Source of the DNA: Escherichia phage vB_EcoM-S1P5QW
Sequence record: OL956808.1
Strand: one strand, 5' to 3'
Length of the DNA: 64,000 nucleotides
The notes beneath the pieces are model-generated. The model made no database searches and was not told the origin of the DNA. It saw nothing but the letters and a program-made list of their open reading frames with translations. Position 1 is the first letter of the stretch. Each line of letters opens with the position of its first letter. Positions 43,061 through 52,604 of this stretch are shown here, one piece after another. Position numbers and translations under genes: made by a program.

Positions 43061-43069
43061 AATTAATTT

Positions 43070-43156
43070 GGGGAGTTATCCCGTAGAGGTAGCGGTGTGG
43101 ACTGTAAATCCATTGTCATTGCGACTCGGGTGGTTCGACTCCATCACTCCCCACCA
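43070..43156 (+). tRNA. tRNA-Tyr (anticodon GUA), type II
   Basis: Acceptor ggggagt/actcccc, anticodon stem gtgga/tccat with loop ctGTAaa, long variable arm resembling E. coli tRNA-Tyr, encoded CCA. Confidence 0.7.
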
Positions 43157-43160
43157 ATTT

Positions 43161-43235
43161 GGATGTGTAGCTCAATGGCAGAGCGATCGCCTGTTAAGCG
43201 ATTGGTTATAGGTTCGAATCCTATCACTTCCGCCA
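43161..43235 (+). tRNA. tRNA-Asn (anticodon GUU)
   Basis: Anticodon stem atcgc/gcgat with loop ctGTTaa, T-loop ggttcgaatcc, encoded CCA; one U-U mismatch in acceptor stem. Confidence 0.7.
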
Positions 43236-48285: not shown

Positions 48286-48816
<531 letters not shown>

Positions 48817-48910: not shown

Positions 48911-49384
48911 ATGAAAACATATCAAGAATTTATTACTGAAGCAGCTATTAATTCTCAAATTATTGCTGAATCTTTTACTGATCTTTTGAAATTTAAAAAA
49001 GGACAGAAAATCACTGCTGTACTGGATGATGGTACAGAAGTTGAGATGGATGTACAGGGATATAATTATGCAGTAGATGGAAAACTGTATAATAAATCTC
49101 ATGCTAAATTTGATTCATTTGACGACTTTGTTAATACAGTTGAAGATGAAAAAACTCGTCGATCCATTGCAACAGGTGATGCTAAGGTTCTTATGGCACA
49201 TGGTCATGAACGTATTCGCGCTAAACAGAATAAAATGGGTGAAGATAATTTTGCATTAGTTGGTTATCAATCTGGTAAACAAACTTATGGCTATCAACGT
49301 ACTGCTACCATGTATAACAAAAATGGTAAAATTGCCTTTGTGAATAGTAAAGGTTCTATTCAGTACGTTAAATCGTTCAAATAA
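48911..49384 (+). CDS. internal protein (IPIII-like) with capsid targeting sequence
   Basis: 157 aa; N-terminus MKTYQEFITE-AA matches T4 CTS; adjacent to e as T4 ipIII; aagga RBS. Confidence 0.6.
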   Translation: MKTYQEFITEAAINSQIIAESFTDLLKFKKGQKITAVLDDGTEVEMDVQGYNYAVDGKLYNKSHAKFDSFDDFVNTVEDEKTRRSIATGDAKVLMAHGHERIRAKQNKMGEDNFALVGYQSGKQTYGYQRTATMYNKNGKIAFVNSKGSIQYVKSFK

Positions 49385-49537
49385 GCAAATAAGAAATATG
49401 GGAACAACCTGGACCTCATGATTCTGTGAGGGATTCCCGCCAACCTGTAATAAGGTCGAGCCCAAGTGCGGTAATGGGTAAATACAGAAATGGACAATTC
49501 ATGCGCCACGGAATGGCCCAAACCTAGAGAGAATAAA

Positions 49538-50077
49538 ATGAGAACATTTTTAACTGGTCCTTATCTATCCCTGATGAATGCTTTTACACACCATTCTGAT
49601 GCTAGAGTAGAAGAAATTTGTAAAAACGAATATATCCCGCCATTTGAAGAATTACTTAAACAGTATTGCACACTTCGACTAGATGGTGGACGTCAATCCG
49701 GTAAATCAATTGCTGTGACTAACTTTGCTGCTAATTGGTTGTATGATGGCGGAACAGTTATCGTTCTTTCTAATACTTCAGCTTACGCTAAAATTTCTGC
49801 AAATAACATTAAAAAGGAATTTTCGCGTTATTCTAATGATGATATACGTTTTCGTTTATTTACTGATTCTGTGCGCAGTTTTATTGGTAATAAAGGAAGC
49901 AAGTTCAGAGGTTTATCGCTTTCGCGAATTTTGTATATAATTGATGAGCCTGTCAAATCTCCTGATATGGATAAGATTTATAGTGTCCATATTGAGACTG
50001 TACACTACTGCTGTAATAGTAAATGTTGTATTGGTGGTATTACTCGTCCACAGTTTTTCGTAATCGGAATGCAATGA
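49538..50077 (+). CDS. small P-loop NTPase-like protein with Cys-rich C-terminus
   Basis: Track ORF (49490) over-extended; ATG at 49538 with RBS gives 179 aa; Walker A GGRQSGKS, Walker B-like ILYIIDEP, C-terminal HYCCNSKCC. Confidence 0.55.
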   Translation: MRTFLTGPYLSLMNAFTHHSDARVEEICKNEYIPPFEELLKQYCTLRLDGGRQSGKSIAVTNFAANWLYDGGTVIVLSNTSAYAKISANNIKKEFSRYSNDDIRFRLFTDSVRSFIGNKGSKFRGLSLSRILYIIDEPVKSPDMDKIYSVHIETVHYCCNSKCCIGGITRPQFFVIGMQ

Positions 50078-50403
50078 TGACAGACACTCAGCTTTTCGAA
50101 TATCTTTATTTTTCGCCAAAAACTATTAAAAATAAATTGGTGAATCATTTTGAAATTTTGGCAAATAACAACGTCTTGAGCGAATTTTATCCTAAGCAAT
50201 ACAAATTACAAAAAGGCGTATTCAAAGGATGCAGAGTTTTGTGTACTGCTCCTAATGCACGGCTAATGAATAAAATTCCATATTTTACCATGGAATTTAT
50301 TGATGGTCCTTTTAAAGGACTAATCACCCAAAGTTTAATGGCATATGATTCTGAGCCATTTTTAATTAAAGAACAATCTTGGATAAATTTATTTTCTAAT
50401 TGA
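50074..50403 (+). CDS. hypothetical protein
   Basis: Track ORF starts at non-ATG 50023; ATG at 50074 overlaps upstream stop (ATGA), 109 aa. Confidence 0.45.
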   Translation: MMTDTQLFEYLYFSPKTIKNKLVNHFEILANNNVLSEFYPKQYKLQKGVFKGCRVLCTAPNARLMNKIPYFTMEFIDGPFKGLITQSLMAYDSEPFLIKEQSWINLFSN

Positions 50404-50409
50404 GGTTAT

Positions 50410-50772
50410 ATGAAAGCATATCAAATTCTTGAAGGCACACATAAAGGTACTATTTATTTTGAAGATGGTATTCAAGCACGAATTATTGTCTCTAAAACCT
50501 TTAAAGAGGACTCTTTTGTAGACCCAGAAATTTTCTACGGTTTGCATGCCCGTGAAATTGAAATTGAGCCACAGCCTACAGTTAAAATTGAAGGTGGTCA
50601 ACACCTGAACGTTAACGTTCTGCGTCGTGAAACTCTGGAAGATGCAGTTAAGCATCCGGAAAAATATCCGCAGCTGACCATCCGTGTATCCGGTTATGCA
50701 GTTCGCTTTAACTCTCTGACTCCGGAACAGCAGCGCGACGTTATCGCTCGTACCTTTACTGAGAGTCTGTAA
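50410..50772 (+). CDS. autonomous glycyl radical cofactor, GrcA/YfiD-like
   Basis: 120 aa; C-terminal 60 aa contain glycyl-radical motif RVSGYAVRF and look identical to recalled E. coli GrcA C-terminus; 3' half has host-like GC-rich codons. Confidence 0.85.
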
Positions 50773-50993
50773 TGGCAAAGATAATTATTGAAGGTTCTAA
50801 AGATGTGCTAAATGCTTTCGCAGAATGGTTTAGTAATTCAGGCGAACAGCAATTTAATGAAGCCTGGAATATGGGTGATATTGATGGAATTTATCCTACG
50901 ACAGAAATTTCTGTTCAAGGATATGGCATTCATGAACCTATTCGTTTAGTTGAATATGATTTATGCACTGGTGAGGAAGTCAAATATGATTGA
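50772..50993 (+). CDS. hypothetical protein
   Basis: 73 aa; TAATG overlap with upstream gene. Confidence 0.45.
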   Translation: MAKIIIEGSKDVLNAFAEWFSNSGEQQFNEAWNMGDIDGIYPTTEISVQGYGIHEPIRLVEYDLCTGEEVKYD

Positions 50994-51252
50994 AGATATT
51001 AAAGGTTATAAGCCACATACCGACGAAAAAATCGGTAAAGTAAATGCTATTAAAGACGCTGAAGTTCGTTTAGGACTTATCTTTGATGCTTTATACGATG
51101 AATTTTGGGAAGCATTTGATAGCTGTGAAGATGATGAACTCGCGAAGAATTACGCCGAAAGCCTCGATCAGTTAACTATTGCTAAAACGAAACTCAAAGA
51201 AGCCAGTATGTGGGCTTGTCGTGCAGTGTTCCAACCAGAGGAAAAATATTAA
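50986..51252 (+). CDS. hypothetical protein
   Basis: Track ORF starts at TTG 50950; ATG at 50986 with gaggaag RBS gives 88 aa. Confidence 0.45.
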
Positions 51253-51530
51253 TGGCTCAATTAAGCGCAGGGTTTGGTTATGAGTATTATACTGCCCCTC
51301 GTCGTGTATCTGCCGCTCCTAAGAAAATTCAAAGTCTTGATGACTTCCAGGAAGTAGTCCGTAAAGCTTTCCAGGACTATGCACGTTATCTTAAAGAAGA
51401 TTCACAGGACTGTCTTGAAGAAGATGAAATTGCTTACTATGAGCAACGTCTTGAACAGCTTAAAAACCTACATGAGGTCCGTGCAGAAGTTTCAAAGTCT
51501 ATGAATAAATTGATTAGATTTAAAGAATAA
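51252..51530 (+). CDS. hypothetical protein
   Basis: Track ORF over-extended; ATG at 51252 overlaps upstream stop (TAATG), 92 aa. Confidence 0.45.
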
Positions 51531-51539
51531 CTGTTTACT

Positions 51540-51569
51540 TTTCCTCTTGACTGTGGTATAATTTTTCTA
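51540..51569 (+). promoter_or_regulatory. early promoter upstream of regB
   Basis: GTTTAC, 18-nt spacer, -10 tggTATAAT; imperfect inverted repeat cctcttgactg/cagttaagagg. Confidence 0.6.
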
Positions 51570-51589
51570 TCAGTTAAGAGGAGAATAAC

Positions 51590-52051
51590 ATGACTATCAA
51601 TACAGAAGTTTTTATCCGTCGAAATAAGCTTCGTCGTCACTTTGAGTCGGAGTTTCGTCAAATTAACAATGAGATTCGTGAGGCATCAAAAGCAGCAGGG
51701 GTCTCATCGTTTCATCTAAAATATTCTCAGCATCTTCTTGATCGTGCAATTCAACGGGAGATTGATGAGACATATGTTTTTGAATTATTCCATAAAATAA
51801 AAGACCATGTTTTAGAAGTTAATGAATTCCTGAGTATGCCTCCGCGTCCTGACATTGACGAGGATTTTATTGATGGGGTTGAATATCGTCCTGGACGTTT
51901 AGAAATCACAGATGGAAATCTTTGGCTTGGATTTACGGTTTGTAAGCCTAATGAGAAGTTCAAAAACCCGTCACTTCAATGCAGGATGGCAATTATCAAC
52001 AATCGTCGTTTACCAGGAAAGGCTTCTAAAGCAGTAATTAAAACTCAATGA
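51590..52051 (+). CDS. regB: RegB site-specific endoribonuclease
   Basis: 153 aa; MTINTEVFIRRNKLRRHFESEFRQ... matches recalled T4 RegB; own early promoter and gaggag RBS. Confidence 0.85.
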   Translation: MTINTEVFIRRNKLRRHFESEFRQINNEIREASKAAGVSSFHLKYSQHLLDRAIQREIDETYVFELFHKIKDHVLEVNEFLSMPPRPDIDEDFIDGVEYRPGRLEITDGNLWLGFTVCKPNEKFKNPSLQCRMAIINNRRLPGKASKAVIKTQ

Positions 52052-52058
52052 GGTAAGC

Positions 52059-52604
52059 ATGAGAAAAGCACTACTCGCTGGTCTATTGGCCATTTCAATG
52101 ATGGCACATAGCTCCGAGCATACTTTCAGTAATGTCCAACTCGATAACATGCGTTACGCGTATCAATTCGGGGAACAATTTTCTAAGGATGGAAAATATA
52201 AAACACACAAAAATATCCACAAGAGCGGATTAGGTCATATAATGGCTGCCATTTTATGGCAAGAAAGCTCTGGCGGAGTTAATTTAAAATCTAAACCAAA
52301 GCATCACGCCTACGGAATGTTCCAAAATTATTTGCCTACTATGCGAGCAAGAGTTAAGGAACTTGGTTATAATATGACCGATGCTGAAATAAAAAGAATG
52401 TTGAATAAACGGTCCAATTCAGCTTCCTGGGCGTACATTGAACTTTCTTATTGGTTAAATATACATAAGGGCGATATAAGAAAAGCAATATCCTCTTATA
52501 ATTCGGGATGGAATGTTAAAGCAGGTTCTAAATATGCTTCTGAAGTCCTAGAAAAGGCTAATTACCTTAAAAATAATAAACTTTTGGAAATAGTAAATGA
52601 CTAA
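52059..52604 (+). CDS. secreted lytic transglycosylase-like protein
   Basis: 181 aa; N-terminal signal peptide; SLT-like AILWQESSGG motif. Confidence 0.6.
   Translation: MRKALLAGLLAISMMAHSSEHTFSNVQLDNMRYAYQFGEQFSKDGKYKTHKNIHKSGLGHIMAAILWQESSGGVNLKSKPKHHAYGMFQNYLPTMRARVKELGYNMTDAEIKRMLNKRSNSASWAYIELSYWLNIHKGDIRKAISSYNSGWNVKAGSKYASEVLEKANYLKNNKLLEIVND

Follow-up and report, generated by a model that had tools for sequence, protein, structure and literature searches.

How a lytic phage comes to carry a gene of which one half is nearly identical in DNA to a chromosomal gene of its host, while the other half cannot be aligned to it, is the question raised by the gene vs.6 of Escherichia phage vB_EcoM-S1P5QW. 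The gene lies on the plus strand of a 64,000-nucleotide (nt) stretch of sequence record OL956808.1, which is a T4-like (Tequatrovirus) genome segment and is referred to in its full length as the window. It encodes a homologue of the Escherichia coli glycyl radical cofactor GrcA (YfiD). T4 is the reference lytic phage and is generally regarded as having essentially no DNA in common with its host, which it degrades. We consider it highly probable that vs.6 has been subject to homology-bounded gene conversion from host to phage, in at least two independent events and probably recurrently.

A blastn comparison of vs.6 with 5,426 complete E. coli genomes aligns only positions 50588-50772 (185 nt), which match chromosomal grcA in 5,426 of 5,426 genomes; the identity is 98.9% or 98.4% according to the allele of the host. 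The 5' half yields no blastn alignment in any of these genomes, and its global identity to the 5' half of E. coli grcA is 47.7%. Since the paralogue tdcE reaches at best 75.9% DNA identity to vs.6, the donor is grcA and not a pyruvate formate-lyase (PFL) gene. In the E. coli genome examined, grcA is found at its usual locus between ung and eamB. On direct alignment with E. coli grcA, the last phage-specific base is A50587, followed by a perfect run of 175 nt and by two synonymous mismatches within the last three sense codons; the similarity stops at the stop codon. Thus, a segment nearly identical to the host abuts an unalignable segment at a sharp boundary, which lies at 50588 and not at about 50570, where a preliminary description of this DNA, made from the sequence alone, had placed the switch. 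The parts of the gene are as follows.

50410-50772, plus strand: coding sequence of vs.6 (T4 Y06I), GrcA homologue of 120 amino acids (aa), assigned from the list of open reading frames (ORFs), identity with T4T, synteny and family matches
50410-50587, plus strand: AT-rich 5' half of phage type, comprising residues 1-59 and the first base of codon 60, with at most remote homology to the N-terminal region of GrcA
50588-50762, plus strand: host-derived conversion tract of 175 nt, encoding the glycyl radical domain and 100% identical to the B-type grcA allele of E. coli
50692-50694, plus strand: GGT codon of the radical-bearing Gly95 (RVSGY), the equivalent of G734 in PflB
50763-50772, plus strand: tail of vs.6 with synonymous bases of phage type (GAG at 50763, AGT at 50766) and stop codon TAA; presumed zone of the 3' crossover

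A megablast search of the whole window against the same genomes reveals no other chromosomal E. coli match, and the sole other matches are those between phage tRNA genes and tRNA genes on E. coli plasmids. Host contamination or a chimeric assembly in a single phage genome is a practically negligible explanation for the junction, as T4T, RB9, a Mosigvirus, about 640 independent records and metagenome-derived viral contigs all show it, and the reading frame of vs.6 continues unbroken across it. A scan of 49300-52200 for promoters and terminators returned sites no commoner than in shuffled sequence, none of them positioned to explain the junction. A short inverted repeat with a 5-bp stem is located at 50592-50606 (AGGTGTTGACCACCT on the minus strand), just inside the 5' end of the host-derived tract; a T-rich run comes next on the minus strand and spans the junction, and the repeat is also present in E. 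coli grcA. It is probably due to chance, because such sites are no commoner in this region than in shuffled sequence.

The composition of the 3' half fits the donor and not the recipient. The G+C content at third codon positions (GC3) rises from 0.22 in the 5' half to 0.426 in the 3' half, the latter value equalling the GC3 of the same segment in E. coli grcA (0.42). For reference, the 62 other long ORFs of the window, read in segments of 61 codons, have a mean GC3 of 0.232 with a standard deviation of 0.061, and the 3' half of vs.6 stands at the 99.8th percentile of the 61-codon windows of the phage. All six leucine codons of the 3' half are CTG (7% phage-wide) and all three proline codons are CCG (16% phage-wide). 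The change to host-style codons within the gene, which had been noticed beforehand, is thereby borne out.

The conservation of the protein is not the cause of this identity to host grcA. The last 61 residues of Vs.6 (given as E61-L120, ending in TFTESL) are the same as residues 67-127 of E. coli GrcA, including the radical glycine of RVSGY, as the preliminary description had supposed. RB16-like contigs (L027-L029) encode the same last 61 residues as well, yet only 154 of their 186 nt agree with E. coli grcA, and no exact run exceeds 17 nt. Furthermore, the 3' half of vs.6 in the window differs from E. coli grcA by 0.043 per synonymous site (synonymous difference, pS), as against 0.59-0.69 for the homologues from Karamvirus and 0.75 for the one from a T5-like phage, which are unconverted. 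Protein conservation is therefore ruled out, and neither of the two observations that had been named in advance as speaking against recombination, namely a 3' identity no higher than expected from the protein and a composition like that of the flanking DNA, is found. The same comparison bears on the idea of a single ancient capture that has been kept similar by purifying selection on protein and codon usage, with no recent exchange. Such a capture would agree with the very strong protein-level constraint on the C-terminal domain in all phage homologues. It is very improbable, however, given the RB16-like contigs with their identical residues and diverged DNA, the 175-nt perfect run and low pS of the window with codons atypical for the phage, and the fact that Klebsiella phages carry a Klebsiella pneumoniae version.

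The direction of the transfer points from host to phage, because the codons of the tract are of host type and atypical for the phage, the divergence between the host genes is even, and the phage-type tail is not found in E. coli. The grcA genes of E. coli and K. pneumoniae differ at 30 of 198 positions in the 5' half and at 22 of 186 in the 3' half, as would follow if the hosts had inherited the gene vertically in one piece. Identity to vs.6 stays below 99% in every one of the 5,426 E. coli genomes, so the phage-type tail of vs.6 is present in none of them. Identity alone has no direction, and in principle E. coli and K. pneumoniae could have taken the 3' half of grcA from T4-like phages. Nothing specific favors such a reverse transfer, which is extremely improbable: apart from the host-type codon usage of the tract and the even divergence of host grcA, the gene occupies a conserved chromosomal locus in all 5,426 genomes and the phage-type tail occurs in none, and lytic phages kill the cell.

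A second donor is found in phages of Klebsiella. Five vs.6 genes of Jiaodavirus were sampled (KP17, 15882-3, Shinkou, KP179, and KLB8). They have a phage-type 5' half with a GC3 of 0.19-0.27, which is 47.8% identical to K. pneumoniae grcA, and a 3' half with a GC3 of 0.53-0.61. A 42-nt pattern from the 3' half has a single match, the grcA gene of K. pneumoniae ATCC 13883, in a set comprising one genome for each of 185,579 species. In KP17, 15882-3, and Shinkou, the 3' half shares 172-174 of 186 nt with K. pneumoniae grcA versus 157-160 with E. coli grcA; for KP179 and KLB8 the respective values are 164 versus 155-157. The exact runs to K. pneumoniae grcA extend over 104 nt in KP17, 131 nt in 15882-3, 68 nt in Shinkou, and 44-53 nt in KP179 and KLB8. 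These runs and the E. coli tract of the window share their starting codon (GAA GGx GGT), and the last four sense codons (ACA GAG GCA CTA) are of phage type. Relative to K. pneumoniae grcA, the Jiaodavirus tracts have differing, nested endpoints. Because they end at different points, the 3' halves of KP17 and KP179 are further apart (pS 0.29) than their 5' halves (pS 0.10). In KP179 (L009) and KLB8 (L010), where the gene lies at 423-785, the sequence from about codon 92 on matches neither K. pneumoniae nor E. coli grcA and is fairly G+C-rich; this second segment reads GTA TCT GGC TAC GCC GTA CGT TTT AAC TCC CTG ACC, and an exact 41-mer from it is absent from the metagenome contigs searched. As judged from these sequences, the same half-gene appears to have been overwritten from two host species, each in its own phage lineage, up to a shared 5' limit.

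The unconverted state is represented by homologues from Karamvirus, Slopekvirus, RB16/RB43-like, and T5-like phages, which have AT-rich codons, are 72-83% identical to E. coli grcA, and show exact runs of no more than 20 nt to the grcA genes of E. coli or K. pneumoniae. Slopekvirus was considered as a further case of conversion, as it shares the K. pneumoniae-type motif LLDAVEH, but this was rejected, its codons being AT-rich and its pS to K. pneumoniae being 0.82. The LLDA residues are probably ancestral rather than evidence for conversion, because they are also present in PflB and in the T5-like homologues. T5-like phages, with several hundred records from Salmonella and Escherichia, encode a GrcA homologue of 122 aa directly downstream of tRNA genes. 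In one of them, Escherichia phage HildyBeyeler (L013, Tequintavirus, gene at 417-785), the 3' half is 71.5% identical to E. coli grcA and gives no sign of recent conversion despite the same hosts. A T4-like vs.6 homologue on a 163-kb contig (L047, IMG/VR UViG_2706796082, gene at about 1001-1399) has a C-terminal domain that resembles PflB and not GrcA (NVMNREMLLEAMEDPTKY...SLTKEQQ), and its GC3 rises from 0.19 to 0.40. In this case, the 3' half may have been converted by host pflB instead of grcA.

Among the phages of E. coli, the mosaic is widespread. The phage collection contains 643 records, belonging to Tequatrovirus and Mosigvirus, with a 3' half at least 95% identical to that of the window; for the 5' half, 480 records are at least 95% identical and a further 179 are 80-95% identical. 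The recombination with host grcA that had been proposed from the sequence is supported by synonymous near-identity, a sharp 5' boundary, host codons, and the replicate in Klebsiella phages. The event was recent only relative to the divergence of the phage genera, and the notion that it was private to one phage is not tenable, as T4 and about 640 Tequatrovirus and Mosigvirus records share the mosaic.

The age of the tract can be judged from lineages in which the 5' half has diverged. Phages with a 5' half at 88-91% identity keep a 3' half at 97-98%, for example the Mosigvirus LF82-16 and mar005P1. When the window is compared with LF82-16, 12.5 of 37 synonymous sites differ in the 5' half (pS 0.338) and 3 of 46 in the 3' half (pS 0.065; binomial P = 1.3e-5); the vs.4 genes of these two phages differ by an indel. 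A single capture before the split of the genera followed by ordinary divergence does not fit these values, suggesting that the tract was renewed after the genera had separated, by new copying from the host or by passing between phages.

Further indications come from single positions. At nt 240 of grcA, which falls into the tract, E. coli has a common polymorphism between CGT (B-type) and CGC (K-12-type), and this site is also polymorphic among phages, with CGC in RB9 and in the record L016 and CGT in the window and in T4T. The state in the phage does not track the laboratory host, because RB9, which has CGC, is recorded from E. coli B, a CGT lineage. Likewise, each of the four possible pairs of tail codons is found: GAA-AGC in E. 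coli, GAA-AGT in T4T, GAG-AGC in the record L019, and GAG-AGT in the window. Both observations hint at several host-to-phage events, each of them being weak when taken alone. As a separate observation, Tequatroviruses from Yersinia (PYps47T, PYPS2T, phiD1) or Proteus (Isf-Pm2) encode Vs.6 proteins that are 98-100% identical to that of the window. For phiD1, the DNA comparison covered the 5' half. If the 3' halves of these phages are E. coli-type DNA, this would suggest that they had recently evolved on E. coli or Shigella and not on the isolation host.

A different history, in which one conversion took place in each host lineage and phage-phage recombination then spread the converted allele without repeated exchange with the host, is doubtful. 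It is in line with the intense recombination among T-even phages and with the fact that all phages with a 5' half at least 80% identical to that of the window also have an E. coli-type 3' half (about 659 versus about 646 records), as a single sweep would give; the combinations of tail codons are explicable by phage-phage crossover or point mutation, too. It accounts less easily for a tract that is 97-99% identical to present-day E. coli alleles even though the adjacent 5' halves differ at a third of their synonymous sites, for the division of the phages between K-12-type CGC and B-type CGT at one common host polymorphism, and for the varying endpoints of the Jiaodavirus tracts relative to K. 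pneumoniae grcA. Because of this identity across genera, the CGC/CGT split, and the varied endpoints, several host-to-phage events are the simpler assumption, and repeated or ongoing conversion accounts for the pattern better than a single event does.

For the conversion of vs.6 by host DNA, the following history is proposed. The phage vs.6 would be an old full-length homologue of grcA, the 5' half of which has diverged beyond alignability at the DNA level, while the 3' half, encoding the glycyl radical domain, would have been replaced, through homologous recombination, by sequence from the grcA gene of the infected cell. Enough DNA similarity for strand exchange (about 77-83% in unconverted phages) would have been kept only in the segment of the glycyl radical domain. 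As only this segment would be similar enough for exchange, the 5' edge of the tract would correspond to the edge of phage-host similarity at the I-E-G-G codons. The 3' crossover would fall within the last few codons, where vs.6 overlaps the start region of vs.5. The GAGAG in the tail of vs.6 may be the ribosome-binding site of vs.5, and the phage-type tail may have been kept through selection on vs.5 translation; the KLB8 record annotates the ribosome-binding site (GAGG) of the downstream gene at the place equivalent to the GAG of the vs.6 tail. The conversions from E. coli to Tequatrovirus and Mosigvirus and from K. pneumoniae to Jiaodavirus would be independent of each other. Once converted, the tract would match the host chromosome perfectly over about 175 nt, which would make the next exchange much easier and would account for why the phage tract does not stray beyond the variation of present-day E. 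coli alleles. Host DNA fragments probably enter the UvsX-dependent pathway of recombination and replication. While identity, boundaries, direction, and the two host-specific versions can be read from the alignments, we infer the pathway of recombination, its repetition within each lineage, and any advantage under selection.

A tentative extension of this proposal is that concerted evolution might go on permanently in the 3' half of vs.6, linking strictly lytic T-even phages to the chromosome of their current host; each conversion would prime the next, and selection would keep the spare part matched to the local PflB and PflA. If so, the tract would be a record of the recent host species of a phage and also a measure of how frequently lytic phages copy chromosomal DNA.

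Several points weigh against the conversion of vs.6 by host DNA. T4 degrades the DNA of its host and replaces cytosine with hydroxymethylcytosine, so exchange from host to phage should be rare, and the recombination of T-even phages with chromosomal grcA is deduced here from sequence comparison. Within the E. coli phages, one conversion followed by phage-phage spread would leave a very similar pattern. The CGT/CGC difference concerns one transition site, and its occurrence in both phages and hosts could be a coincidence, with a rough chance of 0.05-0.2. The second segment of KP179 and KLB8 could stem from another Klebsiella species or be older phage-type sequence. Finally, Vs.6 scores below the curated equivalog cutoff of the GrcA family TIGR04365 (153.3 versus 170 bits), which is due to its divergent N-terminal half.

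The assignment of vs.6 as a gene for a GrcA-like glycyl radical cofactor, which had been made without database searches, is confirmed by family and structure matches. Residues 61-101 match the Gly_radical family PF01228 (E 2.8e-18), residues 20-120 are aligned to TIGR04365 from NCBIfam with the score given above (E 3.7e-45), and the best match among solved structures is the nuclear magnetic resonance structure of GrcA, 6OWR (E 8.6e-42). Residues 58-120 align to residues 697-759 of PflB with the same radical motif (E 5e-26), the radical glycine of RVSGY being G95 in Vs.6. The 59-aa N-terminal half alone does not match any Pfam or NCBIfam family at E <= 1. In the full-length alignments to TIGR04365 and 6OWR, similarity reaches back to residues 20-22, with ARIIVSK/ARCIVAK and REIEIE/REVPVE as corresponding motifs, and intermediate phage sequences (L034-L039) bridge the N-terminal regions of Vs.6 and GrcA.

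Vs.6 is thus a small stand-alone protein that consists essentially of the glycyl radical domain. It shares this organization, the RVSGY motif, and the 61 C-terminal residues with E. coli GrcA, from which it differs in being 7 residues shorter and in its strongly diverged N-terminal half (DNA identity about 48%). In contrast, PflB is an enzyme of 759 aa, of which residues 697-759 are the piece replaced by the spare part. The converted segment of vs.6 is exactly the part homologous to this C-terminal piece of PflB around G734. E. coli YfiD and T4 Y06I have both been reported to associate, once the PFL activase has activated them, with PFL that oxygen has cleaved and to make this enzyme active again (Wagner et al. 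2001, cited in PMC8683613). The same function in PFL repair presumably applies to Vs.6 of the window, because its protein is identical to that of T4. Following the published biochemistry of T4 Y06I, the host activase PflA would place the radical on Gly95 in the C-terminal domain of Vs.6, this radical domain would replace the C-terminal piece that PFL loses upon oxygen cleavage at G734, and PFL activity and with it the fermentative energy supply would be restored in the infected cell. This biochemical role is already established, and the present analysis adds nothing new to it.

In other phages, homologues of vs.6 are found next to a different glycyl radical system. In the Aeromonas T4-like phages PX29 (H103) and phiWae14 (H104), the vs.6 homologue adjoins nrdG, which encodes the activase of anaerobic ribonucleotide reductase, and in Yersinia jumbo phages (L042, L043) it is located near an NrdD-like ORF ending in RRVSGY. 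This hints that some of these phage spare parts may be linked to the anaerobic ribonucleotide reductase system rather than to PFL.

The surroundings of vs.6 are those known from T4-like phages, and the following neighboring genes were delimited in the window.

48322-48816, plus strand: lysozyme gene e
50023-50403, plus strand: vs.7, upstream gene of phage-type DNA, given as the longest ORF; without E. coli match
50772-50993, plus strand: vs.5, downstream gene, the ATG of which overlaps the stop codon of vs.6 (TAATG)

The order on the plus strand is e, an Ip4-like ORF, vs.8, vs.7, vs.6, vs.5, vs.4, vs.3, regB, and vs.1, and the same order is annotated in RB9 and T4T. For vs.7, the start annotated in T4T is about 50 nt inside the longest ORF of the window. 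E. coli grcA has its place between ung and eamB, whereas the phage gene is part of an early-gene cluster. The vs.6 gene of T4T has the same neighbors (vs.8, vs.7, vs.5, vs.4, vs.3, and regB) and the same DNA mosaic, being identical to E. coli grcA at 183 of 186 nt. Its protein is 100% identical to Vs.6 of the window, and the two genes differ only synonymously, at two sites in each half; the tail codons are GAG AGT CTG in the window and GAA AGT TTG in T4T. The protein identity and the position between vs.7 and vs.5, upstream of regB, place the gene in the Straboviridae orthologue group of T4 vs.6, so that the YfiD-like ORF of T4 to which the preliminary description referred is the T4 counterpart itself (vs.6/Y06I). 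Many phage records already label vs.6 as 'autonomous glycyl radical cofactor', and the gene is conserved in 6 of 6 T4-like genomes (Nolan et al. 2006, PMC1524935).

The tRNA genes that gave the only other matches form a cluster of their own at some distance from vs.6. Between 41913 and 43771, the plus strand encodes 11 tRNAs (Gln, Leu, Gly, Ser, Thr, Met with a CAT anticodon, Tyr, Asn, His, Arg, and Lys); T4 has eight tRNA genes. The stretch with the tRNA genes for Tyr and Asn (about 43065-43221) resembles tRNA genes carried by about 255 E. coli plasmids of about 75-112 kb, the identity being 83-90%. The matching plasmids carry tRNA genes for Tyr, Thr, Asn, and Arg and may be phage-plasmids.

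The conversion of vs.6 implies that short, partly diverged homology suffices for host-to-phage copying in nature and that such copying has happened more than once. The counterpart in the Klebsiella phages makes this a clean natural experiment with two hosts. The tract is a candidate marker for the host species in Straboviridae genomes and offers a natural calibration of the homology needed for recombination between phage and chromosome. It also calls for caution with pipelines in which any host-identical stretch of a phage assembly counts as a contaminant.

The gene vs.6, its product, and its role are already known, as is the exchange of segments between T4-like phages and their hosts as a type of event. 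In the portions of the literature covered by our search (including PMC8683613, PMC1524935, PMC13450708, and PMC2993671), the function of the protein and its Gly_radical annotation are described and nothing is said on nucleotide identity to host grcA; an earlier mention in Wagner et al. 2001 or in the T4 genome review of 2003 is possible. Within these limits, we could not find a description of a tract in T4 and its relatives that nearly equals host DNA, of the constancy of its 5' boundary, of its renewal after the genera had split, or of the K. pneumoniae version in Jiaodavirus.

The closest known parallel is the intragenic recombination between cyanophages and their hosts in psbA and psbD, which has been reported for T4-like phages (Zeidner et al. 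2005; Sullivan et al. 2006, PMC1484495). Like vs.6, psbA and psbD are host-derived metabolic genes in T4-like phages with a patchy G+C content, and segments of them have been exchanged with the host copy. For psbA, these exchanges were inferred statistically among many diverged sequences, and they occurred in both directions. In contrast, vs.6 contains a near-identical tract with one fixed 5' boundary, its conversion is unidirectional as sampled, it exists in two host-specific versions, and the phages that carry it include T4.

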